This document shows, piece after piece, positions 30,848-55,542 of a DNA stretch of 64,000 nt; position 1 is the stretch's first letter, and each line of letters opens with the position of its first letter. Location: IMG/VR virus record IMGVR_UViG_2917802685_000001, positions 90,159 to 154,158 of that record. One strand, given 5' to 3'. The DNA comes from a virus. Lineage: Duplodnaviria > Caudoviricetes. The position numbers and the translations under genes are program-made. The notes beneath the pieces were generated by a model. It was not told the DNA's origin, did not search any database, and was given only the letters and a program-made list of their open reading frames with translations.

Positions 30848-33010
30848 ATGTACGACGCTCGACACGACGCGCCGGACGACCTGTGGACGGACGAGTCCTG
30901 GGCCGCCGAGGAGTCCACGCGTGAGCCGATGCGTCCTCATGCGCGCGGCCAGCGCCGCAACCCCTCCCGCGAAGACCGTTCCGTACGTCGCCGGATGCGC
31001 CGCGCGGGCGCGCAGGAGGAGAACAGCATGCCCAGCCCTGACCGCTCCGAGCTGCTGCAGCGGATCGAGCGTGCCGCATCGTTCGACGAACAGCTCAAGC
31101 TCGTCGCCCAGCTCCACGATTTCGACCGTGCCGCGCAGCGCACCGCCGCGCTGGACCGCGAGGCGGACCTGGCCGACACCTCGATCCGAGAGAGGTTCAC
31201 CCCGGTCGTCTCCGCCGTCGCGCGCGGTACCAGCGCGTCCGACTGGCTGGACACCGAGGTCACCGACACGCCGTTCGACCACGGCCAGCTCATCGCGCAG
31301 GCCGCGCTGTGGTTCGGCGGCGTGCCGGACTTCGTCAAGGCCGACCAGGAGGAGTTCGCCGAGCAGGCCGTCGGCAAGGCCCGCCAGGTCTCCGCGAGCC
31401 TCGGCGCGCAGTCCCAGACGGCCGAGGACATCTTCGTCGGCTACGCGACGTTCCTGCGCACCCAGGCCGTCACCGTCGAGGCCGCCTCGGGCGTGGACCA
31501 GATCCAGCAGACCACCGCGCCGGACGGCGTCACCAACAAGCCGACCCCGCTGCCCCCGGACGTGTTCGACAACTTCGCGCCGCCGGTCGCCGACATCAAC
31601 ACCGCCGTCTCCGGCACGGAGACCTCCAGCGCGGCCCCGGCGATCCAGATGTCCCAGCAGGGCGGAAACTCCAGCCCCGAGGTGCCCGGCGGCCACGACA
31701 GCAGCGGCCAGCTGACCGGCCCCGGCGCGGAGCCGTCCCTGTCCGGCGGTGGCGGCAGCTCCTCGCCGGAGCGCGCGGGCGGCCACTCCATCTCCGGGGA
31801 CCTCCCGGCGCAGGGCGGGCCGACCAACGCCACTCCGCAGGCCGAACCGGCGCAGGAGGAGACCGAGCAGACCCAGGAGGCCGGTGACGTCTCCCAGCGC
31901 CCGAAGACGGCCGCGTCCGGCCTGGAGCAGGTCCAGCAGTCGGTCGACGTCCACGACCAAGACCACTCCACGCCGCTGCCGACCACCGTGGCGTTCCCCT
32001 GGACTCTGGACGAGGGCGGCGAGGCCCACGGGATGACCGGCGACGCCCAGTACGACCAGGGCGGGCAGGTCTCCTCCGGCCACCAGGCGCACGCCCGGCG
32101 CGTGCAGGCCGACACCTACACCGCGCCTCCGCAGATCATCGAGCCGAACATCGCCAACTCCCCGGCCTCCACGCCGCCGCGCAACGTCGGCCAGGCCGGG
32201 AATGGCGCGGCCGACGCCAAGAACCCCGACGCGAAGCCGTCGTTCGGCGACGCGCACGCCGCGCCCCAGTACACCCAGGGCTACACCAGCACTGCCCCGG
32301 CCGCGCCCGCGCAGGACGTGCCGTACTCCATGGGCGGCGACAACGGCCAGAGCCTGCAGCACCCCGCGTTCGCCTCCCGCCGCGTCGCCTCCAAGCAGGA
32401 CATGCAGCACCCCGACTTCCAGAAGGGCTACAAGTACGCGGCCCGCTGGAAGGAGGGCACCCCGGTGGTCCGGCCCGGCTCTGCGGAGCTGGAGGCCGGT
32501 ATCTACGCCGGGTTCACCGACAACCCGCACTCGCGCGGTGCGTGGCTGTCCGCGCACGCGGCCCTGGCGTCCGTCGAGCCCTCCCTGGGCCGCCGGATCG
32601 CCCAGCACCGGGAGCTGACCCACAAGGTGGCCGCCGCGCAGGCCCTGCCCACCGACGGCACCTACCTGCAGGTCGAGGCCGCGACCGGGATCGACCTGGA
32701 CACCACCAACCCGTCCACCTCGCCGTCGCCGTCCGGCGACACCCCGATCAACGGCCCCGGCAAGCCCGGCCCGCTCGCGGGAGGCATGGACGCAGCCGCC
32801 CCGGCCGGTGCCGCCCCCTACAACGGGGCCGAGCCGATGGGCCAGCCGGTCGTGCCGTCCTCGGCGGCCGTGCCGCAGGGCCAGCCGGTGACCATCCCCG
32901 ACAGCGGCATGGCGTCCGCGTACAACTCCGGCTCCGGCCTGTCCCCGACGGCGTCCGCGTTCCGCCGCCGCGTGCAGGCGGGCCTCCTCGCTGAGAAGAA
33001 GGGCGCCTGA
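30848..33010 (+). CDS. Putative internal head/core protein, low complexity (alternative start 31028)
   Basis: First gene of late unit; internal repeats AASG(V/L)(D/E)Q(I/V)QQ; many x-x-A motifs. Confidence 0.75.
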   Translation: MYDARHDAPDDLWTDESWAAEESTREPMRPHARGQRRNPSREDRSVRRRMRRAGAQEENSMPSPDRSELLQRIERAASFDEQLKLVAQLHDFDRAAQRTAALDREADLADTSIRERFTPVVSAVARGTSASDWLDTEVTDTPFDHGQLIAQAALWFGGVPDFVKADQEEFAEQAVGKARQVSASLGAQSQTAEDIFVGYATFLRTQAVTVEAASGVDQIQQTTAPDGVTNKPTPLPPDVFDNFAPPVADINTAVSGTETSSAAPAIQMSQQGGNSSPEVPGGHDSSGQLTGPGAEPSLSGGGGSSSPERAGGHSISGDLPAQGGPTNATPQAEPAQEETEQTQEAGDVSQRPKTAASGLEQVQQSVDVHDQDHSTPLPTTVAFPWTLDEGGEAHGMTGDAQYDQGGQVSSGHQAHARRVQADTYTAPPQIIEPNIANSPASTPPRNVGQAGNGAADAKNPDAKPSFGDAHAAPQYTQGYTSTAPAAPAQDVPYSMGGDNGQSLQHPAFASRRVASKQDMQHPDFQKGYKYAARWKEGTPVVRPGSAELEAGIYAGFTDNPHSRGAWLSAHAALASVEPSLGRRIAQHRELTHKVAAAQALPTDGTYLQVEAATGIDLDTTNPSTSPSPSGDTPINGPGKPGPLAGGMDAAAPAGAAPYNGAEPMGQPVVPSSAAVPQGQPVTIPDSGMASAYNSGSGLSPTASAFRRRVQAGLLAEKKGA

Positions 33011-33012
33011 CC

Positions 33013-34275
33013 ATGGACATCGCATCCCTGATGTGGGACGAGACCGGCCGCGACCTCGACCACGAGCGTCGTGAGCTGGCCCGTACGGCCGCCCTGAACG
33101 ACGCCGAGCGCATGGTCGGCCAGTTCCTCTACCAGGCGTCCAACGACGTCGACCTGGTCAACCGGTTCGCGCTGGCCGACTCGCAGCTGCAGGCCGTGGC
33201 GTCCCTGCGCGGCTACCCGCTGCAGGACCTGACCGGCGACCTGACCGAGCGATGGCAGCTGCTGTCCCAGACGCGTACGGCGCACCGGCAGAAGGTGGCC
33301 GCGTCGGCGCAGAAGCTGAAGGCGACGACGGCCGCCGAGCAGGTCATGGACACGGTGGCGGCCCGCCTGGCCGCCGTGGCGGCGCGCCAGAACCCCGGCG
33401 TGCCGATGGTCGAGTGCCTGAAGCTGGCCACCGAGGCCGTCCGTGTGCACGCCGACGCCTACCCGCTGGCGTACGAGTCGTGGGGCGGCACGCACGACGG
33501 CCCGGTCTCCAACCGGGTCAAGAACTTCACCCCGGGCCAGCTGCCGAAGGCTCTTCCGGAGAGTGCCAGCGGCCCGGCGGCCGACCCGGGCGCCAACGGC
33601 GGCTCCGGCACCTTCGACGAGGTCAAGAAGCGTCTGGACGGCCTGGAAGAGGGCCTCGGTTCGGCTGCCTCCCTGGACCCGACTGTGGCCGGGTTCTACC
33701 AGCGGCTGAAGGACTGGTGGCACGGCGGCGAGGAGGCGCAGCACACCCCGGCGGCTCCGACCCACGCCCCGGCTCCGGCTCCCGCGCAGCGGGCCCCGTA
33801 CATGACCCCGAGCAACAACGCGGCCTCCGACCACGTCGATGACGCCGTCACGCGTCATCACGACGAGCAGGGGCGCCGCGAGTTCAACGACATCATGAAC
33901 CGGCTGAACGGCGACCAGGCCGAGATGAACCACAAGTGGGACACCCCGCGCGAGGACCGCTTCGAGAGCCCTGCGGAGACCAACCAGCGCACGAGGTACC
34001 TGCAGGACGCTCACGACCGGCGGACCACCGACATGGAGGGACGAGTGGACAGCCTCGGCGATTCGCTGACGCCGACCCCGCCGAGCACGCCTGCGGGCGG
34101 CTTCTCCCACTCCGAGCGCTCCCAGATCACCAACGTGCCGATGCACAACGCGGAGCCCGCCGACTTCTCCCACGTCGACACCGGCACCGGCGGCGGCCAG
34201 CAGGTGCTGCCGACCGACCCGGCCGAGCACGCCTTCTCCCACCGGGCCAGCCTCCAGCACAGCCTGTTCGAGTAG
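33013..34275 (+). CDS. Putative virion head protein
   Basis: TGACCATG coupling; position upstream of portal; ends QHSLFE. Confidence 0.7.
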   Translation: MDIASLMWDETGRDLDHERRELARTAALNDAERMVGQFLYQASNDVDLVNRFALADSQLQAVASLRGYPLQDLTGDLTERWQLLSQTRTAHRQKVAASAQKLKATTAAEQVMDTVAARLAAVAARQNPGVPMVECLKLATEAVRVHADAYPLAYESWGGTHDGPVSNRVKNFTPGQLPKALPESASGPAADPGANGGSGTFDEVKKRLDGLEEGLGSAASLDPTVAGFYQRLKDWWHGGEEAQHTPAAPTHAPAPAPAQRAPYMTPSNNAASDHVDDAVTRHHDEQGRREFNDIMNRLNGDQAEMNHKWDTPREDRFESPAETNQRTRYLQDAHDRRTTDMEGRVDSLGDSLTPTPPSTPAGGFSHSERSQITNVPMHNAEPADFSHVDTGTGGGQQVLPTDPAEHAFSHRASLQHSLFE

Positions 34276-35754: not shown

Positions 35755-37932
35755 ATGGCAAGCCAGCGGGGCGGAGCCCAGCCGAACTACGACGGCGAGC
35801 AGTCACGGATCGATCGTCTGTTCCGTCGCTTCTCCTCGCGGCCGGGCGAGTCGGGCGAAGAGGCCGAGATGCGCGCCAACCGGCGCGTCGGCCGCCGGAA
35901 GACGGCAGCGGCGGGTTTCACCGGCGGCGGCGCGGGCGGTCCTTCGGTGGACTTCGCCACGGTCAGGCCGCGCGACCCGCTGTTCTACTGGCGGCAGAAC
36001 AACCTGCCGTTCCAGTTCGACGACCCGGCGCAGATGCAGAAGATGCGGGCGTACTGCCGACTTCTTTACATCTCGCATCCGCTGGTCGGCTCCTGCGTCG
36101 ACATCTACTCGAAGTACCCGCTGCTCGGGCTGAAGATGTCATGCAAGGACGAGCGGCTCACCGAGTTCTACACGGACCACTTCCTCTCCGAGGACGGCCT
36201 GGACTACCAGAAGTTCCTCGTCAGGATGGGCCGGGAGTACTGGACGACCGGTGAGGCGTGGCCGCTCGGCACCTTCAACGAGGACCTCGGCGTCTGGGAC
36301 GACGAGGAGCTGCTGAACCCCGACGACGTCGAGGTGCAGCCCTCCCCGTTCCTGCGCGAGCCCCGGTTCCTGATCCGGCTCCCGCAGAGCATGAAGGAGC
36401 TGATCCGCACCCGGCAGCCCGCCTGGGAGTACGAGAAGCTCATCACGGCGTACCCGGAGCTGACGTACTACTCCGACGACAACGCCCTCATGCCCGTCAG
36501 CAACATCCTGCTGCGGCAGATGAAGTTCGAGGCGGACACGTTCAACCCCCGGGGCATCCCGCTGCTGTACAGAGCGATGCGTTCGCTCATGCAGGAAGAG
36601 ATGCTGAACGCGGCCGTCGACTCGATCGCCGACCGGCTCTACACGCCGCTCATCCACGCCAAGCTCGGCGCGTCCGCGTCCGACCTCGGCACCAACGTGC
36701 CGTGGATTCCCACCATGGACGACCTCGCCGACTTCGAGGAGGCCGTGGACGCGGCCCTCGCGGGCGACTTCCGCATCATCATGACCCACTTCGCGGTCCA
36801 GATGGAGTCGGTGCTGGGCAAGGAGGACATCCCCGACCTGACCGGTGACTTCGACCGGATCGAGGGCCGGGTCCTGCAGACATTCGGCTTGAGCAAGACC
36901 ATGCTCGCCGGTGCCTCCTCCGGCGAGACGTACGCGGCCGACGCCCTCAACCGCGACCTGGTCACGCAGATGCTGACCAACTACCAGAACCTCATCGCCT
37001 CCCACTACCGCCAGCGGGCCCTCGTCGTCGCCGAGGCCCAGGAGCACTTCGACTACGAAGAGCGCAACGGCAAGCGGTACGTGAAGATGGAGGAGATCTA
37101 CGAGATCGACGAGGAGACCGGCGAGGGCCGGATCGTCGAGCAGCCCAAGCTCCTCATCCCTGACCTGCAGTTCAAGACGATGTCCCTGCAGGACGAGGCC
37201 GCGCAGAACGAGTTCTTCGAGGCCCTGCGCGAGGCCGGGGTCCCGATCTCGATGAAGACGCGCCTGCACAACGTCAACATCGACTTCGACGAGGAGATCG
37301 AGAAGTCCCGCGACGAAGCCGTCGACCTCGCGGTGGCCGAGCAGGAGTCCCGCAAGGCCATCTACGTCGCGCTCAAGGACAAGGGCCTGCCGATCCCGCA
37401 GGACCTGCGGGCCGACTTCGAGCCGCGTGCGCTGCCCGAGGACCAGGACATGATGCAGCCGCCGACGGCGCCGCTGCGTATCCCGATCCTCGGCATGGAC
37501 CCGATCAGCTCTCAGCCCACGCTCGCGCCGACCATGCAGGACCTGACCGCGATGCCCGCCGACGGCGGCGTGGCCCAGCCCGGCGGCGTGCCGGAGCCGG
37601 TCGACGCCGACCAGGGCGAGCAGCGGCCGGACGAGTCCGACGAGCAGCGCGAGGACATGCCCAAGCAGTCCTCGCTGATTCCGTACCCCCGGCCGCGCCT
37701 CGACGACTACACGGGTCTGTTCCAGAACCACGAGCGGATGAAGGCCCTGGCCGACGAGCACCAGCCCAAAGTCAAGGTGCCGGTCAAGCCGGTCACCGAG
37801 GACGACGCCGAGACTCCGGTCCCCGAGGCGATCGAGCGCAAGAAGGCCGTCGGCCTCTACCAGGGCCCGCGCCACCTCGGCATGCGCCGCCACATCACGG
37901 AGGCCGACATCAACATGGAGCTGCAGGTATGA
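35755..37932 (+). CDS. Portal protein
   Basis: Size and position; HPLVGSCVDIYSKYPL, GREYW..GEAW, RGIPLLYR, RLYTPL motifs recalled from Bxz1-like portals. Confidence 0.8.
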   Translation: MASQRGGAQPNYDGEQSRIDRLFRRFSSRPGESGEEAEMRANRRVGRRKTAAAGFTGGGAGGPSVDFATVRPRDPLFYWRQNNLPFQFDDPAQMQKMRAYCRLLYISHPLVGSCVDIYSKYPLLGLKMSCKDERLTEFYTDHFLSEDGLDYQKFLVRMGREYWTTGEAWPLGTFNEDLGVWDDEELLNPDDVEVQPSPFLREPRFLIRLPQSMKELIRTRQPAWEYEKLITAYPELTYYSDDNALMPVSNILLRQMKFEADTFNPRGIPLLYRAMRSLMQEEMLNAAVDSIADRLYTPLIHAKLGASASDLGTNVPWIPTMDDLADFEEAVDAALAGDFRIIMTHFAVQMESVLGKEDIPDLTGDFDRIEGRVLQTFGLSKTMLAGASSGETYAADALNRDLVTQMLTNYQNLIASHYRQRALVVAEAQEHFDYEERNGKRYVKMEEIYEIDEETGEGRIVEQPKLLIPDLQFKTMSLQDEAAQNEFFEALREAGVPISMKTRLHNVNIDFDEEIEKSRDEAVDLAVAEQESRKAIYVALKDKGLPIPQDLRADFEPRALPEDQDMMQPPTAPLRIPILGMDPISSQPTLAPTMQDLTAMPADGGVAQPGGVPEPVDADQGEQRPDESDEQREDMPKQSSLIPYPRPRLDDYTGLFQNHERMKALADEHQPKVKVPVKPVTEDDAETPVPEAIERKKAVGLYQGPRHLGMRRHITEADINMELQV

Positions 37933-40900
37933 CGTTCACGCTGGTTCCGGTCACGCGGACCTACACCGACGGCTCGGGCAATCCCCGCAGCGGCACGGTT
38001 CGGCTGCAGCTCGTCGGCGTGCTCACCAACGACGGGGAGATCGCCGACCGGCGGCCGTACACGGCCACGCTCAACGGCCAGGGGGCCATATCCCTGAGCG
38101 TCCAGGCCACCAACGACCCCGACACACTCCCGGTCGGCGGCGGCACCTACGAGGTGACCGAGACGCTGTCCGGGCTGGCCACGGCCACCTACTTCATCGC
38201 CGTGCCGTACGACGGCGGGACGGTCAACCTGGCCACCGCGCCCCGGCTGGCCGAGGCCCTCGCGCCGGGCATCTTCTTCCAGCCCGTCAACCAGCGCGGC
38301 CTGCCCAACGGCTACGCGGGCCTCGACGGCTCCGGCCGCGTCCCCCTGGAACAGCTGCCCGCCAACCTCGGCACCGGCGGCGGGAGCGCCACGCCGATCA
38401 GCGGCGACAACACCGACATCCAGGCCCTGGGTACCCGGGCGGCCGGGGCCAGCGGCAAGGCGGCCGACGCCCAGCACGTCCACCAGATGCCGCTGCTGCA
38501 CCAGGTGGGACTGCCGACTGCCAGCATCCCCCTGAACGGCCAGCGCATCACCGGCGCGGCCAACGGCGTGAACCCGCAGGACTACGCCACCGTCGCCCAG
38601 CTCGGCGGCTCCGCGCTGGCCTGGTTCAACGTCAAGGACCTGGTGTACGGCGCCAAGGGCGACGGGACGACCGACGACACGGCCGCCATCCAGGCCGCCA
38701 TCAACGCCTGCCCCTCCGGAGGCATCGTCTACCTGCCCGCAGGCGTCTACCGCACCTCAGCCACCCTGAAGCCGAAGCCGGGCGTGGTCCTGCAGGGCGT
38801 GCACGCCAGCCTGATGTCCGGACCGGGCCTGACCGACCCGCCGTCCTACATCCAGCCGCTGGCCTCCTTCACGGGCACCGCGCTGCTCACTTACCAGGAC
38901 CAGGCCACCGGCGGCTATTCCAGCCTGGCGGCCGAGCACCAGCTGAACGACATCATGCTCGACGGCTCGACGCTGGACGGCACCAAGCCGGTCGACGGCA
39001 TCTACGCCGCCGGGAATGTCCAGAACGTTGTCATGCGTAACGTGACGATCCGGAAGATGTCCAACAACGGCATCGTCACCGCCGGGGTCAGCAACGTCTT
39101 CCCGTACTCCTGGCGCCTGCACCAGGTCATGGTCGACAACTGCCGTGGCAACGGCATGATGCTCAACCGGATGACCGACATCACCCTGGACGACTGCCAG
39201 GTAATCGGCTGCTGGGCGACCGGCTTCATCCTCAACAACATCGCCAACTCCACCATCATTGCCTGCCGCGCGGAGTGGAACGGCAACTACGGCTTCTACG
39301 TCACCGGCTCCTGGGGCAACGGCGCGGGCTCCGGCGGCGCCGTCATGTCCGCCTGCAGCACGGACCGCAACGGCTGGGACGGCGTGCGCGTGGACGCCAC
39401 CGGCAACGGCCCGCTGACCATCGGCGAGCTGGTCACCCGCCGCGACGGCCGCAACGGCGGCTCCGGCGGCGGGAACTATGCGGGCCTGTCCCTGGTCGGC
39501 TCCACCATGCCGGTCGTGGTCAGCGGACTGACCTGCTACCCGGGCGTGGACGACAACGGCAGCGGCACCAACTCGCCCCAGTACGGCGTCCGCCTGTCCG
39601 GCGCCTCCAACGTCCAGCTCGACATCGCCTACCTCCACGCCGACACGCAGGGCCTGTACGACGACGGCACCAACACGGCCGTCACGATCGGCGCCACCGT
39701 CACCACGGCGACCGGCCCGACCACCGCGCCCGTGCGCGCGGCCCGGCCCTCGCTCGCGGTGGACTGGCTGAACGTCAAGAAGTACAACGCCAAGGGCGAC
39801 GGCACCACCGACGACGCCCCGGCGATCCAGGCCGCCATCAACGCAGCCAGCGCGGCCGGGGGCGGCACGCTGTACTTCCCGGCTGGCCGCTACATCCTGA
39901 ACGCTGCACTCACCTGGGCCAGCGGCGTCAACGCGATCGGCGCGGGCGCCCGCGTGTCCATCCTGCAGTCGACCAACCAGACCCTGGACTGCATCACCGG
40001 CACCGACATCAGCGGCGTCACCCTGCAGGCGCTGCAGCTGTCCGGCCCCGGGCGCGGCTACGGCTCCGGTGTGCGCTTCACCCGCTTCTCCGCGCCGTCG
40101 ACCTCGAACATCAGCCTGCGGGACATGCTCATCCAGTCCTTCGGCGGCGACGGCGTCTTCTGCCACGAGCTGACCGCCAGCACGCTGCACCGCGTGCGGG
40201 TGCGGACCTGCGGCGGCCTCGGCTTCCACCTGCGCTCCCCGCAGGACACCGTCCTGGGTGGCACCTCGACGTCGCTGATCTCATGCTCCGCCGAGGGCAA
40301 CGTCACCGGCGGCTTCTGGCTCGACGGCATGGCCTACACGACCCTGAGCGCCTGCTCCGCCTCCAACACCCCGGCCGGGTACCGGCTGGACAACTGCCTG
40401 GCCGTGAGCCTCAGCGGCTCCGGCGCCGAGCAGTGCACCACCGGCCTGATCATCTACGGCGGCAACGGCACGGTAGTCACGGGCTTCTACACCGAGGCTT
40501 CCGACGGCACGAGCGTCTGGCTCACCAACGCCACCTCCGGCGTGATCCTGGCGGGCGTCGTGGAGGCGTCGCCCGGCTCCGGAGCCACCACCTGCCTCAA
40601 GGCGGACGCGGGCACATACGGCACCGCGCTGGGCCTGATCGCGGTCAAGCCGAACGCCCTGAACGGCACCGTCAACCTCCTCGGCCAGGGCGACGGCTCG
40701 GTCACCCTCGCCGGGCGCACCGTCATCCCCACGACCGGCCCCGGCGCCCGCATGGGCACGGCCGTCCTCGTCGGCGGCACGGTCACCGTGAACACCACGG
40801 CGATCGGGGCGGGCAGCGTCGTCATGCTGACCACCCAGACCCCGGGCGGCACGGTCGGCACCCCGTACGTCTCCGCGCGGACGGCGGGCACTTCCTTCGC

Positions 40901-40964: not shown

Positions 40965-40978
40965 CCCCTGGAGCCCCC

Positions 40979-41776: not shown

Positions 41777-41779
41777 TTG

Positions 41780-41813
41780 CTGTCTCGGTCGCGGGTTCCA
41801 ACCGAAGGGGTGA
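41780..41813 (+). promoter_or_regulatory. Late promoter motif
   Basis: CTGTC-N20-AAGGGGTGA. Confidence 0.75.
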
Positions 41814-41840
41814 GATCTCACCACCCTCCGGGAGGAACCC

Positions 41841-43145: not shown

Positions 43146-43155
43146 AGCGCCCTTG

Positions 43156-43190: not shown

Positions 43191-43218
43191 AGGGTTTCGG
43201 TCGTTGAGGGAGGCGCCG

Positions 43219-45946: not shown

Positions 45947-47215
45947 TTATGCGTGCACGGCCGATGTGAGGCGCCGGTTGATCAGGCCCATCTGCAGCGA
46001 GTTCTTCATGGCGTGCCCGACCGGCAGCAGCTTCGAGGTGGTGGTGAACAGGTCCTCCGTCGCCTGCAGGACGGCCTCACGCTGGTCCTTGAAGGGCTCC
46101 TCGTGGTCCTTCTTGCGCTGGATGGCGGTGTGCAGGAGGTAGGCGGTCACCGCGTACGAAGGCAGGCCGAGTTTGCAAGTGACCGTCTCGGCGCGCCCTC
46201 GCAGGTCGGTGGGCACGTAGGGGGCGAGATGGAGAGAGGCGTCGTGGATCTCCTGGATCCGCTTACGCAGGCGCAGGTCGAGGTGCTTCCAGTTCCAGAA
46301 GTCGTACAGGCGGGCCAGGAGATCGCAGGTGCGGGTGGGGCGCCGGTGGGGGACCTGGTCGTCGTAGATCACCTTGGGGACTGCCCGGGTCAGGGTGAGC
46401 CACAGCGGGCGCAGGTCGTTGATGGCGGCATGGGCCTTGACGAGGTGGTCCACGCGTTCCAGCTTCGGGGCCGCCGCGCCGCCGACGACGAGGAGGATGG
46501 CACTGACGAGGGCAAAGCTGGAGGTGACGTCCACGAACTGGTCGCCGCCGAGGAACGGTTTGTCGAAGAGGCGGACGATCAGGTAGCCAGAGCGCAGGAC
46601 GCCGTAGAACACGCCGATGGAGCAGCCCAGCGACATGGCCTGCATGCCGTACTTGAAGGCGCCCTTGGCTGACGGCTCTCGCGCCGTGGCGGAGCACATC
46701 ATGGAGGTGCAGACCAGGCCGAAGACCAGGTAGGCGTAGAAGAGCAGCATCTGCAGACTGCCCCAGAAGTGCCCGGCCTGGACAAAGATGAAGTCCGAGT
46801 CCTCTTGGCTGCCGGTGCGCCGCTGGGCGAACGGGAAGAGGGCGACCACCGCGACGACGACGAGCCAGCTGACGATGCGCCGGGGGTTGCTGCTGACGAC
46901 CTTCCGGTAGCGGGGCTCGCGTCTGCCTTCCATGCGGCCGGGCACGACGTTGGTGACCCAGCGCAGGAGTCCGGCGACGGCGGCGATCCCGAATATGTGC
47001 TTGGTCAGGGTGGTGATGTCGTCTACGCCGGTGGCCTCGTACAGGAAGTCCCCGACGCTTTGGATCTTCGCCAGCATCGCCAGGTCGAGGGCGAGGAAGA
47101 AGATCCAGAGCGGACGGCTTCGCGAGTTGCGGAGCGCGGCTGGGAAGCGTCGCAGGACTTCCAGGGTCAGGAGGCTGCTCACGATCCAGGCGGGCATGTC
47201 AGGTGTGGCGGTCAC
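45947..47215 (-). CDS. MAB_1171c-family multi-TM protein with C-terminal DUF6545-like domain
   Basis: About 7 TM helices then LRPLWLTL..AVP.V...LRLRKRIQEIHDA.L.L.PY. Confidence 0.8.
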   Translation of the reverse strand: MTATPDMPAWIVSSLLTLEVLRRFPAALRNSRSRPLWIFFLALDLAMLAKIQSVGDFLYEATGVDDITTLTKHIFGIAAVAGLLRWVTNVVPGRMEGRREPRYRKVVSSNPRRIVSWLVVVAVVALFPFAQRRTGSQEDSDFIFVQAGHFWGSLQMLLFYAYLVFGLVCTSMMCSATAREPSAKGAFKYGMQAMSLGCSIGVFYGVLRSGYLIVRLFDKPFLGGDQFVDVTSSFALVSAILLVVGGAAAPKLERVDHLVKAHAAINDLRPLWLTLTRAVPKVIYDDQVPHRRPTRTCDLLARLYDFWNWKHLDLRLRKRIQEIHDASLHLAPYVPTDLRGRAETVTCKLGLPSYAVTAYLLHTAIQRKKDHEEPFKDQREAVLQATEDLFTTTSKLLPVGHAMKNSLQMGLINRRLTSAVHA

Positions 47216-47230
47216 CGTTACTCATCTCGG

Positions 47231-47776
47231 TCAGATGTCGAGGCTCTCTCGCACGTTCGCCTCCAGGAGGGTCGCCTTGCGGGGGGCGTTCTGGGCCAGC
47301 CAGCCCTCGGCGAAGTAGCCGAATTTCTCGGCCTTTCGTTCGCGGTCCTCGCTGCTCGTGCCGTCGGCGCGGCACATGACTCCGGCGGAGGCGAGGGCGT
47401 CCGCGAGGAGGCCCGATGTACTGGTGCAGGCCCCCATCAAGAGGCGCACGATGCTGGTGAGGTTGAGCCGGTCCGGCTCATCTCCGTTGACCATGTGGCC
47501 AAGCTCGTGCCCCAGGACGTGGTTGTACGGTATGCCCGAGATGGCGGGATGGGCCCAGACGAGGTCGGTGTCCGGCGTAGGGAACCACATGCCGCTCGGG
47601 CCGTTCGGCGAGGCCACCACTGGGTCACGGCTGAGGATGAGGTTGCGACCGCGCACCTGCTCCACGTACGCGCGCAGCAGATCCTCGGCCGTCCAGGGAG
47701 ACGCGGGGAGCACCAGCCTCGTCAGTGCTTGGTCCCAAGTCCCCTTCAGGCCATGCCGGTTCCGCATCACACCCAT
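47231..47776 (-). CDS. ImmA/IrrE-like Zn metallopeptidase
   Basis: PSGMW, HVLGHELGHM (HExxH), ERKAE. Confidence 0.85.
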   Translation of the reverse strand: MGVMRNRHGLKGTWDQALTRLVLPASPWTAEDLLRAYVEQVRGRNLILSRDPVVASPNGPSGMWFPTPDTDLVWAHPAISGIPYNHVLGHELGHMVNGDEPDRLNLTSIVRLLMGACTSTSGLLADALASAGVMCRADGTSSEDRERKAEKFGYFAEGWLAQNAPRKATLLEANVRESLDI

Positions 47777-49104: not shown

Positions 49105-49354
49105 TCTGTATGCCGTCTACGGGCGTCGCATCGTTCAACGACGCATCGGGTGAACGGTATCGGCAAATTTAGAATAAGTCTATTTGTCGCCAAAGCGAGG
49201 AAGAGGACCTTCCGCTTCGGCCGACCAGCGGAGAGCGTATCTCGCATTGTGCCGAACCTCTGGCCATCGGTTCTCCCCTCCATGAGGTCTACACATCTCC
49301 TTCTCCAACCTGTTGCCGTCGACGGCCCCCAGGTTGCCCAGCGGACCGGGCTTC

Positions 49355-49389
49355 CTGTTCGTCACACCTCCTCCACCCCCAAGGGGCGA
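49355..49389 (+). promoter_or_regulatory. Late promoter motif
   Basis: CTGTT-N21-AAGGGGCGA. Confidence 0.75.
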
Positions 49390-49429
49390 GGGCGCACCAC
49401 GCGCCGCCGCCCGCACAGGAGGACCCGGT

Positions 49430-52400
49430 GTGCTGAAGTTCGCCACGGCCCAGATCATCGCCGCCAGCCTCGGCGATCAGCAGCGTGTCACCAAGGCGGC
49501 CCACCGTGCGGTGTTCGAGTACGACGCGCGTCCCGGCTACTTGTACGTACGCAGCAGGGCGATCAGTTCACGCTGCAACGACAATTTCGACGAATTTCCT
49601 GCCGAGGAGATCGCGGCGTCGTACAAGACGTTCGTCGGCAAGCCGGTCTTCGTGAACCACGTCAACGACAACCACCGGCGCGCCCGGGGCGTCATCATCG
49701 ACGCCGCTCTCCACCATGACCGCAACCCTGACGGCTCGCCGGACACGTGGGCCGAGGTCCTCATGGAGATCGACGCCACGCGGTTCCCGAAACTGGCCAA
49801 GGCGATCCTGGCCGGGCACATCGACCGGACCTCCATGGGCTGCGACGTCGAGCGCTCCGTGTGCTCCGCCTGCGGCAACGAGGCCCGCACTCCGGCCGAT
49901 TACTGCTCCCACATCCCTCACTTGAAGGGCAAGCGGATCTTCCGCGCCACGGCGGGCGGGAAGAAGGTCGGGGAGCTGGTCCGCGAAACCTGCTTCGGGT
50001 TGAGGTTCTTCGAGAACAGCGTGCTCGTAGAGCCCCCGGCCGACCCGACCGCGCACTTCCTCGGCGTGGACGCCTCCGGCCTCGGCAAGGCCGCCTCGAA
50101 GTCGCGGGTGCACGTTGGCAGCGAGCCCTGGATCGATACGACGGCCGCGACCGACTACTCCCAGTTCGAGGACCACGACGGCCTGGAGGGCGACGACGAC
50201 GGCGGCGAGGACGAGGCGCCCCAGCCGAAGCCCGCCCACCCCGCCGCGCACGCCAAGCCCGCCGTGCCGCACGTCCCGTTCGAGGGCACCACGCCCGACC
50301 ACCAGCGCCGCCAGGATGCGGTGACGCACGCCAAGCCCTTCACCCCGCTGAAGCCGAGCCTCAACGGCCTGCAGGCGCAGGCCGCCCAGGGCCTGTCCTG
50401 GGACGACATCGGCGCCCGCCACCCACACATCTACGGCGACCCCGAGGTCCACGGCGAGGCCGCCGAGCACGCCGACGGCCAGATGATCGGCTGGGCCGCC
50501 AACGACCTGGCCCACTCCACCCGGGACGACCCGGACGCCGAACGGCACGACATCAGCGAGTTGACCTTCCATCGCGCGATGGTCGACCCCCACACCATCG
50601 ACCACAAGCGGCACGGAAGCAGCGACGGCCGGGTGGCCTCGGCCGTCGAGGGCTACAAGAAGAACCCGGACGAGATGCCCCCGGTGGTGCTGGTGCACCG
50701 TCACGGCGTCTTCCAGGTCGCCGACGGCCACCACCGGACCGAGGCCGCCAAGGCCGTGGGCATGGACAAGGTCCCCGCCTACGTGGCGAAGTCGCCCTAC
50801 CCCAACAAGCCCAGCGGCTGGGGTGAGCGTGCTCCGTACCACGGCGCGGAGAAGACCCGCTGGACTCCGCCGAAGACGAAGGAGACCCCGGCCCCGGCCG
50901 CTCCTCAGTGGGAGCAGCAAAAGCTGTTCGAGGCCCGGCGTCAGGCGGCGCTGCAGGCGATGGCGGCTGCGAAGAAGCCCGCGCCGAAGGCCGCCGAGCC
51001 CGAGGTGGACGAGTACGGCACCCCGAAGCCGAAGCGCGGCCAGCCGTACGAGCCTGCCGGGGACCACCCCTGGTACAAGCAGGTTCCGCTGCACCACGAC
51101 CACATCGTCGACCACTGGGACAAGGCGACCGACGAGGAGAAGGACTCGGGCATGCGCTGGTACAGCGATGCCCACCACGTCGCCAAGGCCATCGCCAAGC
51201 TGCACCCGGGCATCACGTCTGACGAGGAGGCCGCGCACAAGGGCGCCGGTGTCCTGTCGGCCTACTCGCCGCGCACCAACTGGCCGATGAACATGTTCAA
51301 CGCGGCCCACTCCTTCCACCGGCAGGCCGCCGTCCGGCCGCTCAAGGACGACCCGGACAAGCCCGCGCACGCCATCACCATGGGCATGCACGCCGACAAG
51401 GCGCAGCGAATCATGGACGGCGAGCACCACCAGCCGGTCCTGAACTCGCCCAAGACGCAGGACTTCGCTCACCTCATCGAGCACGGCGGTCACGAGCCGC
51501 AGACCGACGAGGAGAAGAAATCCGGCGCCGAGCCCCGGATGAGCGGGCGTGTGGTCGTCGACCGGCACGCGCTGTCCGTGGCCGCCGGGCGCCGGATCAC
51601 CGACGTCGAGAACGACGCCCACTCGGGGTTCCCGGGGACCGGCGGCAAGCACGCCCGGCACTACTACGAGCACGCCGCCAACACCTACCGCAACGCCGCC
51701 GCTGCCATCTCCGAGAAGGAGGGCAAGCCGGTCGGCGCGCACCAGGTGCAGGCCGTGACGTGGCTGGTTCGCCAACGGCTCAACGCCGACGAGGACCAGG
51801 CCAACGTCAACGCCAACGCCAAGAACCTGGGCACCGGGCGCAGGAAGTCCGAGGAGAACATCAAGGGCCACTGGAAGGACTTCGCGGGTGAGCACGCGCC
51901 GGAGCTGAAGGAGCAGGGAAACTCCCACGTGGCCAGGGTCATTGACTCCACGTCCATCAACGACGACGGTACGATCCGTGCCGTTGCGTACGGGGAGATC
52001 AAGGCCCCGGCCGACGTCGACACTCTCCGCGAGGAGAACTGCCCGGTCTGCGGCGACAAGGACACCTTCGACGGTATCCAGTGCCAGATCTGCGGGTTCA
52101 TCAACCCGCCGGAGCAGTTCCGTGACCCGGACCTGGACAAGGCCAAGCAGCTCGACCTGCGCAAGCAGATCGTCGACCCGCAGCTGATCGACAACAACGG
52201 TGAGCTGCAGCGCGTCAACGACGACGGCACCGGCATGCCGCAGGACGGCGAGGAGCCCGGTGACGAGGAGCAGCAGCTGGGCCCCGACGGGCAGCCGCTG
52301 GACGAGGGCGACCCGCAGATGGTCGACGCCGACCAGCTCGACGAGAACGGCCTGCCGCCGTCCCCGTTCGGTGACCAGGCGCTCGACGGCACCCAGCAGG

Positions 52401-52906
52401 CGGGCCCGGCCGTCTCCGACCGCAACGGCGACGGCATGATCCAGCCGGACGAGATCGACCCCGACGGCAACGTCAACGCTCAGCCGCAGATGGTCGACCC
52501 GGGTCAGGGTGGCCAGGCCGCACCGCGTGAACTGCCGGGCTGGGGCAAGGACCACACCGGCCTGCCGTTCTGGCCGGGCCCGGACATGCCCGACCACCCC
52601 GGCGAGCCCGACAGCCCGGACGACAAGCTGGGTCTGGACGACGACGCCCCGCACGGCCGGATGCCGGAGCCGATGATGGGCCAGCCCGGCGACGGTGTCC
52701 CGGACCTGTTCTGCCCGAGCTGCGGCTTCGGTGCGGACGCCACCGCGCCGCAGACCCAGGACATGGGTAACCCGGGCGGCGCGGCCGACGGCGTCGTGGA
52801 CGGGGACGTCTGCCCCAGCTGCCAGCGCGCTCAGCTCCTGACCCCCGGTGAGATCAACAGCAACTTCTCGAAGGCGCCTGCTGTCGAGCGGTCCCCCTGG
52901 AGCTGA
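49430..52906 (+). CDS. Prohead (capsid maturation) protease polyprotein with ParB/Srx-like, DNA-glycosylase-like and Zn-ribbon domains
   Basis: AGGAGG + GTG; FVNH, TSMGC, FENS.LVEPPADP (protease); PPVVLV...VADGHHR (ParB); WY..A...SAYSP..W..N...VDRH...QAVTW; CPVC/CQIC, CPSC x2. Confidence 0.8.
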   Translation: MLKFATAQIIAASLGDQQRVTKAAHRAVFEYDARPGYLYVRSRAISSRCNDNFDEFPAEEIAASYKTFVGKPVFVNHVNDNHRRARGVIIDAALHHDRNPDGSPDTWAEVLMEIDATRFPKLAKAILAGHIDRTSMGCDVERSVCSACGNEARTPADYCSHIPHLKGKRIFRATAGGKKVGELVRETCFGLRFFENSVLVEPPADPTAHFLGVDASGLGKAASKSRVHVGSEPWIDTTAATDYSQFEDHDGLEGDDDGGEDEAPQPKPAHPAAHAKPAVPHVPFEGTTPDHQRRQDAVTHAKPFTPLKPSLNGLQAQAAQGLSWDDIGARHPHIYGDPEVHGEAAEHADGQMIGWAANDLAHSTRDDPDAERHDISELTFHRAMVDPHTIDHKRHGSSDGRVASAVEGYKKNPDEMPPVVLVHRHGVFQVADGHHRTEAAKAVGMDKVPAYVAKSPYPNKPSGWGERAPYHGAEKTRWTPPKTKETPAPAAPQWEQQKLFEARRQAALQAMAAAKKPAPKAAEPEVDEYGTPKPKRGQPYEPAGDHPWYKQVPLHHDHIVDHWDKATDEEKDSGMRWYSDAHHVAKAIAKLHPGITSDEEAAHKGAGVLSAYSPRTNWPMNMFNAAHSFHRQAAVRPLKDDPDKPAHAITMGMHADKAQRIMDGEHHQPVLNSPKTQDFAHLIEHGGHEPQTDEEKKSGAEPRMSGRVVVDRHALSVAAGRRITDVENDAHSGFPGTGGKHARHYYEHAANTYRNAAAAISEKEGKPVGAHQVQAVTWLVRQRLNADEDQANVNANAKNLGTGRRKSEENIKGHWKDFAGEHAPELKEQGNSHVARVIDSTSINDDGTIRAVAYGEIKAPADVDTLREENCPVCGDKDTFDGIQCQICGFINPPEQFRDPDLDKAKQLDLRKQIVDPQLIDNNGELQRVNDDGTGMPQDGEEPGDEEQQLGPDGQPLDEGDPQMVDADQLDENGLPPSPFGDQALDGTQQAGPAVSDRNGDGMIQPDEIDPDGNVNAQPQMVDPGQGGQAAPRELPGWGKDHTGLPFWPGPDMPDHPGEPDSPDDKLGLDDDAPHGRMPEPMMGQPGDGVPDLFCPSCGFGADATAPQTQDMGNPGGAADGVVDGDVCPSCQRAQLLTPGEINSNFSKAPAVERSPWS

Positions 52907-52914
52907 AGCAGTGA
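52881..52914 (+). promoter_or_regulatory. Late promoter motif (variant)
   Basis: CTGTC-N20-AAGCAGTGA. Confidence 0.5.
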
Positions 52915-52969
52915 AGACCGCCCACGGCAACGCGTCGTGAGCGAAGCAGGCTTTGAAGGAGTAACCAGT

Positions 52970-53842
52970 ATGAGCCGTCCGCTCATGGCAGCGCTGACCG
53001 CCCAGCAGCTCGTCATCGACGACCAGCGCAAGCAGCTGGCCGCGCAGGCCGCGCTGCTGGAGGTGCAGGGCAAGCAGATCTCGCTGATCGCCCGCCTGGC
53101 GGGTGTCACCACCGAAGTCGACGCGCTTGCCAAGACTGCCGACATCGCCAACCCCGCCCAGCCCATCCCGGACGGGCCGGAGCAGGCGCCCTCGGAGACG
53201 ACCGAGCAGGCCGCGACCCCCGAGACCAACGACGACGTCCGCTCGCCGGGCCAGACCGGCAACTCCACCGCCGGTGTCCCGGCCGCTGCGACCGACACCG
53301 CGCTCACTCCGGGCGGCACCCTCCCGGCCGAGCCGTACGGCAACCTGCAGGACGTCACCAGCCCTGTCTCCGGCGTCAACACCGGTGAGGTCCCCCTGGA
53401 CGAGACCCGCATCGAGACCGACGTCCGCGTCGGAGACCCGGCGCAGTGGGACGTCGCCTTCCCCTGGACCATGGGCGACAACAAGTCCAACTCCAACCCG
53501 GTGACTACGGGCGAGATGGCCGGTGCCAGCGGTGGTCCGTCGCGCACGCACGCGTGCCTGCGCCTGGCCCGCCTGCAGATCCAGGCCGGGATCGCCAGCG
53601 GCGACGACCTCACCGTGTCCGCACGCCTGGAGGGCGACGCCAGCCTCTCCGACGAGCTGATCAACCGTGAGATCGGCGTCCTGGACCGCGTCATGAAGGC
53701 CGCGTCTGCCCGGACCGCGCCGTCGGGCGGCCGTGTCGCGGCCCGCAGCGCGGAGCGTGTGGCGCCGTCTCTGGCGGCCCACGCGACCGCCTCTGCGGCT
53801 CCGCTCGCGGGCACCGACGAGGTCTCCGACCTGTTCGACTGA
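52970..53842 (+). CDS. Scaffolding-like protein
   Basis: Between protease and capsid; N-terminal coiled coil; ends SDLFD. Confidence 0.7.
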   Translation: MSRPLMAALTAQQLVIDDQRKQLAAQAALLEVQGKQISLIARLAGVTTEVDALAKTADIANPAQPIPDGPEQAPSETTEQAATPETNDDVRSPGQTGNSTAGVPAAATDTALTPGGTLPAEPYGNLQDVTSPVSGVNTGEVPLDETRIETDVRVGDPAQWDVAFPWTMGDNKSNSNPVTTGEMAGASGGPSRTHACLRLARLQIQAGIASGDDLTVSARLEGDASLSDELINREIGVLDRVMKAASARTAPSGGRVAARSAERVAPSLAAHATASAAPLAGTDEVSDLFD

Positions 53843-53850
53843 GCCACTGA

Positions 53851-54008: not shown

Positions 54009-54521
54009 ATGATCCGCGTGCGGGCAAACCTGGCCCACATCAAGCGCACCCTGCGCCCGCTGTACGCCTGGACCCAGGCAACCCCCGCGTCCGTGTTCCT
54101 GGACCCGGCGTGGGACCGAAGCCTCCCGATCTGGCCTGGGATGGTCCTGTCGCAGACCGCTGGCGAGACCGTCAGCCTCATCGGCGCCGGTGGCGTGCCC
54201 TACGGCCTCGCCGGTGACTACGTCGGCGGCGACGGTTTCGACCCGCTGCTCGACGTCGGCGTGAACGCGACCTCCGTCTGGATCATGGGCTCGGACGCCC
54301 AGTTCGAGGTCCTCTCCCCGGCGTTCGACGACACCCAGGCCTGGACCGAGCCCAACGGCACCACCGAGCGGCTCGTCTACGCGATCACCGCCGGTACGGG
54401 CCGAGGCAAGCTCGCGCTCGCCACGAACGGCGCGGTCGCCACTGCGATCTCGACGCTGCCGGTCGGCCGCCTGCTCAAGGTCAACTCCCCGTCCAAGATC
54501 ACCATCGGCGGCCTGCGCTAA
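54009..54521 (+). CDS. Capsid decoration/cement protein
   Basis: Directly upstream of major capsid; KRTLRPLYA..QATP...IWPGMV recalled from Bxz1-like phages. Confidence 0.7.
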   Translation: MIRVRANLAHIKRTLRPLYAWTQATPASVFLDPAWDRSLPIWPGMVLSQTAGETVSLIGAGGVPYGLAGDYVGGDGFDPLLDVGVNATSVWIMGSDAQFEVLSPAFDDTQAWTEPNGTTERLVYAITAGTGRGKLALATNGAVATAISTLPVGRLLKVNSPSKITIGGLR

Positions 54522-54555
54522 AGCGCCCGAGCCGAGCGAGAGGACTCCACTCACC

Positions 54556-55542
54556 ATGACCGCAGCGCCCGCCGCAACCGGCCACGTTCGCACCGCGAAG
54601 AAGTCGGACGACTACGTCTCCGAGATCCTCGCTCGGCGCGAGTCCCGTGGCAACCAGCCGCTCTCCTTCGAGGCCAAGCGTCAGCGCCTCCAGGCCGTCG
54701 CCTCCGACTCCGTCAACGGGATCAAGCGCCTCGGCGTGGGCATGATCGGCCCGATCCAGTTGAAGCTCCGCTACCAGGGCATCACCCGCAACGTCCTCGT
54801 CGAGGACCCCTGCACCCCTGGTACGCCGGTCGAGTACGACGTCTGGGATGACCTCGGACAGGCGTACATCATGTCCGGCACGGACGGCGAGGTTCGCATC
54901 ACGCCGTTCGAAGGCAAGCGCATCCAGGTGCGGTTCTTCCGCATCGCGAGCCGCCCGGCGATCCGCAAGGAGGACCTGCTCTACCTGCGCATCAACGCGG
55001 TCGAGCAGGCGCAGGACGAGACCAAGCAGGCGATCCTCAAGCAGGAGGACAGCCGCCTCGTCACCATCCTGCAGGCCGCGATCTCCGACTACGCGGGCCG
55101 GGCCGACCACACGGTCACCCCGAACCACGTGATCACGGAGGCGTCCGGCTACCTGACCCCTGGCTCGCTCTACAGCGCCGTCTCCATGACGGACATGCAC
55201 GAGCTGCAGTCCAGCCGGATCCTGATCAACCCGATGGACTACCGGGACATGTACCGGTGGGACATCAACCAGACGGGCTGGGCGTTCAAGGACAGGGTCG
55301 TCGCGGGTGAGACCATCACCTCCTACGGCGAGTTCCAGATCCAGCGCTCGATCGTCATCCCGCAGAACACGATCTTCCTGACGCCGGACCCGCAGTTCCT
55401 GGGTGTCTTCCCCGTCCTGTACTCGCTGGACGTCGAGGAAAACCACCGCGTGGAGTCCTTCTGGAAGGGCTGGGTGTTCGACGAGATGGTGTCGATGCTC
55501 ATCCTCAACCCGCGCGGTCTGGCCAAGATCGTCAAGAGCTGA
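54556..55542 (+). CDS. Major capsid protein (HK97 fold, Bxz1-like)
   Basis: SDDYV...RLG..MIGPIQL.LRYQGI.RNVL.ED motif recalled from cluster-C capsid proteins; strong codon bias; flanking terminators. Confidence 0.9.
   Translation: MTAAPAATGHVRTAKKSDDYVSEILARRESRGNQPLSFEAKRQRLQAVASDSVNGIKRLGVGMIGPIQLKLRYQGITRNVLVEDPCTPGTPVEYDVWDDLGQAYIMSGTDGEVRITPFEGKRIQVRFFRIASRPAIRKEDLLYLRINAVEQAQDETKQAILKQEDSRLVTILQAAISDYAGRADHTVTPNHVITEASGYLTPGSLYSAVSMTDMHELQSSRILINPMDYRDMYRWDINQTGWAFKDRVVAGETITSYGEFQIQRSIVIPQNTIFLTPDPQFLGVFPVLYSLDVEENHRVESFWKGWVFDEMVSMLILNPRGLAKIVKS

Follow-up and report, generated by a model that had tools for sequence, protein, structure and literature searches.

The head-assembly region of an uncultured bacteriophage raises the question of whether its head proteins serve as polyproteins that carry enzymes into the capsid and are cut apart there by the prohead protease. 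The DNA analysed, referred to below as the window, is a stretch of 64,000 nucleotides (positions 90,159 to 154,158 of the IMG/VR virus record IMGVR_UViG_2917802685_000001) and represents the final 64 kb of a 154,158 bp genome rated 99% complete. The window has a G+C content of about 70% and is the head-assembly module of a Bxz1/E3-like myovirus; its major capsid protein (MCP) is ~59% identical to those of cluster C (Bxz1-like) mycobacteriophages, the Gordonia phages Pupper and Skog and the Rhodococcus phages E3 and Finch. An earlier note on this DNA had drawn attention to short alanine-ending motifs at domain boundaries in the head proteins, and had proposed that swappable effector domains are loaded into the capsid as polyproteins, freed during maturation and injected with the DNA.

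Genes were called from the periodicity of third-position G+C (GC3), PHROG and Pfam matches and synteny with annotated relatives. Megablast of the region produced a single 73% match, to the E3 capsid gene, and no annotated close relative; in IMG/VR, 383 loci were found to encode relatives of the MCP, and such loci are given L-numbers below (e.g. L052, L086). Computation was used to identify the genes, to trace how their modules are arranged and vary, to assign domain folds, and to show that the motifs are conserved and modestly enriched. The firmest result is the architecture of the prohead protease gene, which contains a cargo slot between conserved ends. The features of this gene and of the scaffold-like gene that follows it are these:

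49313–52906, plus strand: prohead protease–cargo fusion, 1197 amino acids (aa), probable GTG start at 49430; phrog_18299, phrog_2774
49499–50062, plus strand: protease domain with invariant N-H (FVNH), S-M-G and a Cys/His motif; ends PADPTA
50084–50095, plus strand: left cargo border, G-K-A-A / S-K, analogue of a release site
50498–50935, plus strand: module A, possibly ParB/Srx-like, with invariant D-G-H-H-R
50936–50977, plus strand: A/B junction, R-R-Q-A / A-L-Q-A-M-A / A-A-K-K, coinciding with a module-shuffling breakpoint
51065–51802, plus strand: module B, DUF7178 (Pfam E 9e-29), predicted HhH-GPD glycosylase fold
51974–52057, plus strand: right cargo border and block, I-R-A-V-A / Y-G-E-I-K-A-P-A-D-V-D-T-L-R-E-E-N-C-P-V-C-G, also in E3, Mangeria, Pupper, Finch and the IMG/VR clade
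52058–52903, plus strand: conserved ~300-aa tail with a zinc ribbon, an acidic low-complexity region and a second zinc ribbon
52970–53842, plus strand: scaffold-like protein, 301 aa; separate ribosome-binding site GAAGGAG; same frame as the protease open reading frame (ORF), after its TGA
53126–53140, plus strand: scaffold site L-A-K-T-A / D-I-A-N-P-A-Q-P, conserved from 38% to 100% identity

The fusion matched the head-maturation protease family phrog_18299 (E 2.7e-23) and, by tblastn, the annotated capsid maturation or prohead proteases of E3, Pupper and Erwinia jumbo phages, and the gene order protease–scaffold–minor capsid–MCP places it in the head module. The protease domain shares 44% identity with those of Bxz1-like phages and E3; N63-H64 and S122-M123-G124 were invariant in 14 divergent protease domains and are predicted to contribute the catalytic His and Ser. 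A profile of the domain found no relative in the PDB, only spurious zinc-finger rows, and a PDB search with the full fusion by sequence returned two weak rows (E 0.26–0.67). The domain also embeds an invariant C-x2-C...C-x-H (alignment positions C132, C135, C146 and H148), likely to be a zinc site; to our knowledge no such embedded motif occurs in the T4, HK97 or herpesvirus proteases.

In five cultured phages and 44 IMG/VR loci the same order was found: the protease domain, a variable insert, a conserved AYGE...VDTLRE...CPVCG block and the tail. The insert, measured from the protease domain to the AYGE block, ranged from 41 to 1512 aa across the 44 related loci, and even among phages with MCPs at least 94% identical it was 210, 309, 435, 558, 588 or ~640 (642) aa long, while the length of the tail remained constant at ~283–364 aa. 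The two zinc ribbons of the tail are weak Pfam matches. The 37 inserts could not be aligned except at the left border, where G-[LIM]-x-K-A-A provided the one invariant column and was frequently followed by a tandem S-K-T-A. The right border reads x-x-[AS] / [YF]GE, the residue before [YF]GE being invariably A or S, and the block it opens has the consensus [YF]-G-E-x-[KE]-A-P-x-x-V-D-T-L-R-x-E-x-C-P-V-C-G. In Bxz1-like phages, E3, Finch and Pupper the chain runs on into a scaffold-like domain, and L052, L061 and L075 carry the in-frame fusion. In the window the protease and scaffold are separate adjacent genes in the same frame, with a single TGA between them (52904–52972); in many relatives the two are fused, and hhalign matched the scaffold ORF to the domain at the C-terminus of such fusions (E 1e-4, probability 57%). 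Read-through of this TGA may occur but was judged unnecessary, as the scaffold has its own strong ribosome-binding site.

The window's fusion combines a protease, a putative ParB/Srx-like module, a DUF7178/HhH-GPD module and zinc ribbons in one polypeptide. Among the 37 distinct inserts, Pfam identified DUF7178 in 27, NUDIX in five, GNAT in three, an Arr-type ADP-ribosyltransferase (ART) in one and DUF6582 in one; in Mangeria and Pupper, as in cultured phages of cluster C, the same slot holds a Phage_L5_gp82 domain. In relatives, module A and module B are found alone or together, and DUF7178 carries its own leader, [LV]-[QE]-A-[EMT]-A-A, wherever it is placed. The matches of module A were confined to the ParB/Srx superfamily and all fell below threshold (DUF1015 and SbnI; by profile, SbnI and sulfiredoxins at E 0.1–0.5), with E 0.001 to the NCBIfam parB_part, so that its sequence hints weakly at a ParB/Srx-like module.

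For DUF7178 the modelled structure supports an HhH-GPD glycosylase fold of the OGG/AGOG/QNG1 type well. The AlphaFold2 model had a pLDDT of 91.5 and aligned by VIA-align to MjOgg with Z 12.1 over 172 aa (root mean square deviation 3.5), followed by QNG1/DUF2419 (Z 8.4), AGOG (8.1) and OGG1 (~7.5), then AlkA and MutY; the top 38 rows were all HhH-GPD proteins and unrelated chains scored below Z 4. Foldseek alone gave no significant match (E 0.15). D166-R167-H168 (in V-V-V-D-R-H) and K130 (in P-K-T) were invariant in 27 DUF7178 sequences and, judged by motif alone, resemble the catalytic Asp motif and the HhH Lys of the family. No papers on DUF7178 were found in the literature. The domain thus has likenesses both to 8-oxoguanine glycosylases and to QNG1, a glycosylase of queuosine salvage. 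Finch is reported to have 7-deazaguanine-type DNA modification genes (PMC13313380), and a link between a packaged glycosylase-fold enzyme and modified bases is possible.

A second gene was found to follow what its sequences indicate is the same anchor logic as the protease fusion, with conserved anchors and variable parts between them. It encodes a SWIM-anchored protein, listed in the earlier note as the 43219 ORF:

43153–45471, plus strand: 772-aa SWIM-anchored polyvalent-type protein, with a variable N-terminus, SWIM, a variable middle and a conserved C-terminal module
43786–44115, plus strand: SWIM-type zinc-finger module, C-x-C-x21-C-x-H, invariant in five phages; phrog_2940/30974
44380–45060, plus strand: ADP-ribosyltransferase-like module, H-R-G ... 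G-x-F-Y-S ... S-S-E-I-P-L, ending HRHTA / NAD
45298–45468, plus strand: conserved C-terminal module, L-R-R-Q-A / L-K-D-F-T..EQ..LI.EG...A.NLD.LDI.GTHY, an acidic run and W-L-D

Members of this family are 756–2218 aa long, with the SWIM module anywhere from residue ~200 to ~1450, and BLAST against E3, Mangeria, Pupper and Finch found nothing shared beyond the SWIM module and the final ~40 aa. Pfam SWIM reached threshold in Finch gp16. The C-terminal module was conserved in five isolates and ~30 IMG/VR relatives, where it is preceded by LAKTA, RRQA or variants. An acidic run with an aromatic or hydrophobic C-terminus was present in two of the 143 proteins of the genome, the scaffold (…EVSDLFD, 53800–53839) and the SWIM protein (…EDDTTWLD, 45400–45468). 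This post hoc clue suggests, from the sequences, a candidate coat-binding or targeting tail shared by the two. The C-termini of SWIM-family relatives include …TDLFI, …SDIFC and …DDVMFA.

The middle of the SWIM protein (residues 410–636) had 229 homologues, many of them in proteins of up to 3714 aa beside GNAT and Arr domains. Its structural model gives moderate support to an ART-like fold: the AlphaFold2 model had a pLDDT of 81, the top Foldseek matches were all ART toxins (E at least 0.037), and in VIA-align all 50 of 50 rows belonged to the ART superfamily (Z 5–6.2). The family consensus, H-R-G ... G-x-H-W-T ... E-x-E-V-P-L, fits an R-S-E-type ART, and the copy in the window has H-R-G, F-Y-S and S-S-E, the first Glu of E-x-E being Ser. 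This middle region had no match in the PDB by sequence, and among ESM Atlas features only uninformative matches below 0.8. The genome also encodes canonical polyvalent members (ART-PolyVal, PF18760); hhalign of the ART-like profile with the genome's ART-PolyVal domain covered 23 columns at G-x-H-[FW]-[ST] with a probability of 14%, by which a common family was not shown. L086 (16259–19375) and L096 (17745–20654) contain an extra whole ART-like module inserted at HRHTA / NAD, and the remaining three sites of the SWIM protein were conserved among relatives. L088 and L098 contain an additional ~45-aa copy of a segment found ahead of the window's ART module.

Comparison of orthologous polyproteins thus revealed variable domains between conserved sites, as the earlier note had anticipated, in the protease and SWIM-protein genes. 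The notion of swappable effector domains holds for these two, where modules lie between conserved anchors, but not for the proteins encoded from 30839 and 33013, which are conserved and contain no recognisable enzyme domains. The four domain labels originally proposed fared unequally: glycosylase-like is well supported and SWIM rests on its invariant signature, while ART-like has moderate and ParB-like weak support.

Two polyvalent proteins encoded after TerL, outside the window, appear from their sequences to be an independent replicate of the motif pattern. They begin M-T-D-I-S-A-T-S-F-F-R-Q-A and M-T-E-F-N-A-V-A-H-F-R-Q-A, and a leader of the form M-T-[DE]..A..[FH]-F-R-[QT]-A was kept in 16 TerL-linked loci in which the sequence after it differs. 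Internally, G-F-F-R-Q-A (L-T-x-F-F-R-[QT]-A) and L-L-Q-R-Q-A (followed by A-A-V) lie exactly at the borders of Pfam domains, namely ART-PolyVal (448–624) and 2H (673–798).

The positions of the motifs in the structural proteins were then compared among relatives. The proteins concerned are:

54556–55542, plus strand: major capsid protein; phrog_2522, E 3e-107
54556–54597, plus strand: candidate MCP propeptide, residues 1–14, ending H-V-R-T-A before K-K-S-D-D-Y-V
35755–37932, plus strand: portal protein; phrog_2833, E 1e-137
30839–33010, plus strand: 723-aa head-module protein (the 30848 ORF of the earlier note), no known family
33013–34275, plus strand: 420-aa head-module protein, no known family

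All 17 motif strings quoted by the earlier note were present in the proteins named, and all 17 sites were conserved at least in close relatives, most of them down to 38–60% identity; at several of them, modules have been gained or lost. About 50 distinct MCP N-termini have variable leaders of 11–27 aa that end invariably in [RGK]-[VTI]-A, and the block directly after the leader is an invariant [KAS]-[KR]-(K)-S-D-D-Y-V; the five cultured phages have G-x-x-R-x-[AS] before the K. No conserved Glu was found in these ~50 leaders. The portal of the window begins with the element E-x-R-x-N-R-R-V...R-R-K-T-A (P1 codon 35905–35907), followed by a Gly-rich linker and the core FATVRPRDPLFYW. The same arrangement, E-x-R-x-N-R-R-[VI]...[RK]-[RK]-T-A, a Gly-rich linker and a conserved core, was present in about 60 distinct portal N-termini, a minority having K-V-A, K-S-A, K-R-A or K-x-G in place of [RK]-[RK]-T-A. 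The scaffold site reads [KRH]-[TQR]-A, then D-[ILA]-A-N-P-A-Q-P across relatives, and its KTA is tandemly duplicated in L014. The Ala-ending motifs found at module borders do recur, as had been claimed, in the MCP, portal and scaffold, at positions that are usual targets of prohead proteases. That they occur in nearly every head-module protein was an overstatement: the 17 strings are real, but the minor capsid protein (54009–54521) has no candidate Ala site.

Homologues of the 30839 protein, at identities as low as ~38%, were collinear with it in 33 loci, and it has five conserved Ala sites (P1 residues 215, 358, 424, 614 and 714). Each site opens a conserved block directly after indel-rich sequence, with indels of up to 28 and 75 aa, and three of them are copies of [RK]-x-A / A-[ST]-G-[LI]-D-Q-I-Q. 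The nonapeptide A-[AS]-[ST]-G-[LI]-D-Q-[IV]-Q occurs three times in this protein, each time after [RK]-x-A or V-E-A, and looks like a repeated short linear motif. The conserved sites of the 33013 protein are LARTA-AL (P1 26), Q-K-[TV]-A-A (P1 96) and VR[VK]HA-DA (P1 147). Neither protein had a match in Pfam, PHROG or NCBIfam. Because they lack recognisable enzyme domains and are conserved end to end, the two fit the description of processed internal head proteins better than that of effector polyproteins; the five sites reported for the first thus stand, but in a collinear protein and not in a carrier of swappable enzymes.

The motifs were also counted. The loose pattern [RKHV][TQEVH]A occurred 40 times in seven head proteins against 25.9±4.6 in composition-preserving shuffles, and 253 times in the other 136 proteins against 238±15; this comparison is partly circular, as the pattern was derived from the same head proteins. 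A sharper motif, [RK][QT]A, was defined on the leaders of the polyvalent proteins outside the window and is less circular. It occurred 12 times in the head proteins against 5.5±2.3 expected (p=0.009) and 48 times in the remaining proteome against 48.6; for [RK][QT]A[ASGD] the counts were seven against 1.9±1.4 (p=0.003) and 15 against 14.9.

These data can be assembled into one reading, the whole chain of which we hold to be slightly better than an even bet: the protease fusion would be a UL26-like protease–cargo–(scaffold) polyprotein, built into the prohead and cutting after Ala. The chain would consist of an N-terminal serine protease, the hypervariable cargo slot, the AYGE-VDTLRE zinc-ribbon tail and the scaffold, the last encoded here by a separate gene. 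Such chains would co-assemble into the prohead via their scaffold or tail parts, and the protease would then cut after Ala in [RK]-[TQVA]-A and [VAQ]-E-A motifs, removing the 14-residue MCP leader and the portal N-terminal segment, dismantling the scaffold and separating the cargo modules. Once freed, the enzymes would be retained in the head and pass with the DNA into the host, where they would probably modify host or defence targets; ejection and an effector role are proposed by analogy with T4 Alt and the T4 internal proteins and with the SPN3US ejection proteins. In a second carrier, the SWIM module and the conserved C-terminal tail would anchor an ART-like module. The fusion is almost certainly located inside proheads, because prohead proteases act there, and the gene positions of the SWIM, 30839 and 33013 proteins suggest that these may be packaged too. 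The Ala-ending motifs are probably the cut sites of the protease, a candidate role deduced from their position, their conservation and the assemblin precedent.

A number of observations weigh against this reading. Alanines conserved in divergent homologues provided what we regard as an unbiased test, with a background R+K frequency of 10.7%: a conserved R or K at −2 accompanied 17 of 172 conserved alanines in head proteins (9.9%) and seven of 83 in other proteins (8.4%). The large terminase, which is not packaged, has five copies of [RK][TQ]A against 0.63 expected, and in this respect equals any of the candidates. The motif is loose, with R, K, V, A, L or H all allowed at P3, and Gly takes the P1 position in a few portals; many sites begin conserved blocks, so that their conservation could reflect structure and not cleavage. 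No enzyme domain could be recognised in the 30839 or 33013 protein, the matches behind the ART and ParB/Srx assignments fell below threshold, and the scaffold is a separate gene here, a difficulty for the recruitment of the protease–cargo chain. Glu is the residue after which the characterised proteases closest in function (those of T4, phiKZ and SPN3US) cut, and ~80% of SPN3US head proteins stay uncut (PMC10052503). Searches of the literature on Bxz1, E3, Myrna and Finch found nothing usable on processing or virion content.

By counting, then, the sharper motif stands out modestly and the conserved-Ala test shows no signal, and raw motif counts were dropped as the chief argument after the terminase and conserved-Ala controls. 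The enrichment predicted for head over other proteins was recovered in part, at 2–3.7-fold for the sharper motif, and is weaker than the earlier note implied. The position of the motifs in the sequences is stronger evidence than their number. The terminase in question is encoded at 56270–58471 of genome G000 (L166:2271–4472; phrog_2), and its motif surplus served here as a warning against arguing from motif counts.

Three other explanations were weighed against cutting at the Ala motifs. The most serious, which we nevertheless consider unlikely, is that the large proteins are packaged polyvalent proteins that stay mostly intact, the Ala motifs being linker, helix-cap or targeting elements (e.g. 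scaffold- or portal-bound) and at most the MCP leader being removed. N4 vRNAP, ArdC and TraC1, like many polyvalent proteins, are delivered unprocessed (PMC5512222), the uncut majority of SPN3US head proteins (~80%) fits the same picture (PMC10052503), as do the negative conserved-Ala test and the location of the sites at the edges of conserved blocks. This explanation has more difficulty with the classic propeptide layout, in which one short signature ends the variable leaders of the MCP and of two polyvalent proteins, and with the bracketing of every cargo insert of the protease fusion by that signature. In all known systems, moreover, the protease must free itself from its scaffold or tail, and tandem sites such as SKAAS-KTA and LAKTATVKTA are more easily explained as redundant cut sites.

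It is improbable that the recurrence of the motifs is a by-product of an Ala/Arg-rich proteome at 70% G+C and of post hoc selection, with no shared signal. Composition alone does predict ~26 loose motifs in the head set, and the five copies in TerL and the conserved-Ala result point the same way, but the motif defined outside the window was 2–3.7-fold enriched in head proteins while the other ~134 proteins stood at expectation. The pentamer FFRQA, furthermore, recurs at leader ends and at one internal domain border, and the positions are conserved in ~50 MCP, ~60 portal, ~30 SWIM-protein and 37 protease-fusion sequences. A shade less probable again is a protease that processes the head proteins with another specificity, for instance after Glu, the Ala motifs being irrelevant. 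The detectable relatives of its domain outside the actinophages are annotated as 'prohead core protease' in jumbo phages, and the characterised enzymes of that type all cut after Glu (PMC10052503). However, MCP leaders have no conserved Glu and the first conserved element at their end is [RGK]-[VTI]-A followed by K-K, no x-x-E is conserved at the insert borders, and the related herpesvirus assemblins cut after Ala. The favoured reading remains that of a protease–cargo polyprotein cut after Ala in the prohead.

The remaining genes of the region are arranged around these proteins. The plus-strand order is the 723-aa protein (30839), the 420-aa protein (33013), the portal (35755), a tailspike-like protein (37929), an endolysin (41841) and the 772-aa SWIM protein (43153); then come two minus-strand membrane-protein genes, the protease fusion (49313), the scaffold-like protein (52970), the minor capsid protein (54009) and the MCP (54556).

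54009–54521, plus strand: minor capsid protein of the Myrna gp98 / Finch gp18 type; BLAST 1.7e-35 to Finch gp18; phrog_2783

In Myrna, Finch and E3 the MCP is preceded by a gene of ~170 aa whose product is a TW1-like minor capsid protein (PMC7150772). The 301-aa scaffold ORF was tried as the counterpart of this gene and the alignment did not fit; the counterpart is 54009–54521. Between the portal and the remaining head module (37929–42716) lie the tailspike-like protein of 1011 aa, with two pectate-lyase/beta-helix regions and a K1-lyase C-terminal domain, and the endolysin, a position occupied in Bxz1-like phages by ThyX and RNA ligase genes. The plus-strand head module is broken up at 45947–47776 by the minus-strand genes for a 422-aa multi-pass membrane protein and a 181-aa protein, and beyond these ~1.5 kb (47.8–49.3 kb) has no clear gene.

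If the proposed cuts are real, phages with HK97-type heads would have an Ala specificity with a basic P3, so far known from herpesviruses, and not that of the Glu-specific T4, phiKZ and SPN3US enzymes. The reading, if true, would explain the variation of the 'hypothetical' 900–1400-aa genes beside the capsid gene in over 200 sequenced cluster C mycobacteriophages, and would provide a defined insertion site, and a leader, by which proteins of choice could be loaded into mycobacteriophage capsids. For DUF7178, a common family without an assigned function, it would mean a fold (HhH-GPD glycosylase) and a context as a virion-delivered enzyme. A more far-reaching proposal can be offered only tentatively and is on balance doubtful: that in Bxz1/cluster C, E3, Finch and Pupper, and in uncultured relatives numbering in the hundreds, the essential gene for the prohead protease acts as a natural cargo slot, such that any domain placed between two Ala-P1 sites of a UL26-like protease–scaffold polyprotein is automatically encapsidated, excised and injected; that the [KR]-x-A code is shared with the herpesviruses; and that Ala specificity and the protease–scaffold fusion predate the split between phages and herpesviruses.

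Among known systems, a close parallel is found in the herpesviruses, in which assemblin (MEROPS S21) cuts the pUL26 protease–scaffold fusion after Ala in (V/L/I)-x-A / S. As in pUL26/UL26.5, an N-terminal maturation protease, a linker and a candidate C-terminal scaffold occur in one chain, with a separately expressed scaffold and a capsid of HK97 fold, and the proposed self-release and maturation cuts would fall after Ala with a hydrophobic or basic P3. Unlike pUL26, the phage has a slot of 41–1512 aa for enzyme cargo between protease and scaffold and its P3 is mostly Arg or Lys; the scaffold of the window is a separate downstream gene, whereas that of pUL26 is nested, and the cuts of the phage are predicted and an assemblin-like fold of its protease putative.

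To call this a new system overstated the case, as packaged polyvalent proteins (PMC5512222) and head-protein processing (PMC10052503) have already been described. Virion-packaged polyvalent proteins were surveyed by Iyer, Burroughs, Anand, de Souza and Aravind (2017), who reported rare assemblin-like peptidase fusions, invariably with the peptidase at the C-terminus, and inferred a processing role for them (PMC5512222). The present proteins resemble these in being phage chains with at least two unrelated effector-type domains (ART, GNAT, NUDIX, ParB-like) that are shuffled among relatives; packaging is predicted for them, with release possibly brought about by a peptidase domain, and the genes for the protease fusion and the SWIM protein both lie between the portal (35755) and the MCP (54556). 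They differ in that the essential prohead protease is N-terminal, doubles as the carrier and is linked to the scaffold, and in the proposed shared Ala-P1 junction motif and short N-terminal leaders.

The proteases of T4, phiKZ and SPN3US process the MCP, the portal and many internal or ejection proteins, all after Glu (PMC10052503). Like T4 gp21 (with Alt, the internal proteins IPI-III and their capsid targeting sequences), phiKZ gp175 and SPN3US gp245, the phage enzyme would be a single head protease with many substrates (MCP, portal, scaffold and internal proteins), short N-terminal leaders would end in the protease motif, and an ART would be packaged, as is Alt, which is injected with the DNA. 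Those enzymes, in contrast, cut at [LI]-x-E, [SAG]-x-E or A-x-E, and their cargo is encoded by separate genes and not by inserts in the protease gene. Lambda C/Nu3 and P2 gpO likewise join protease and scaffold in one frame or chain, but have no inserted enzyme modules, and their proteases belong to other families (ClpP-like/S49 and S73). No paper describing a protease-carrier cargo slot in Bxz1-like phages was found in the literature. What differs here is that the essential prohead protease is itself the N-terminal carrier, with a slot between protease and scaffold and a putative Ala-P1 code.

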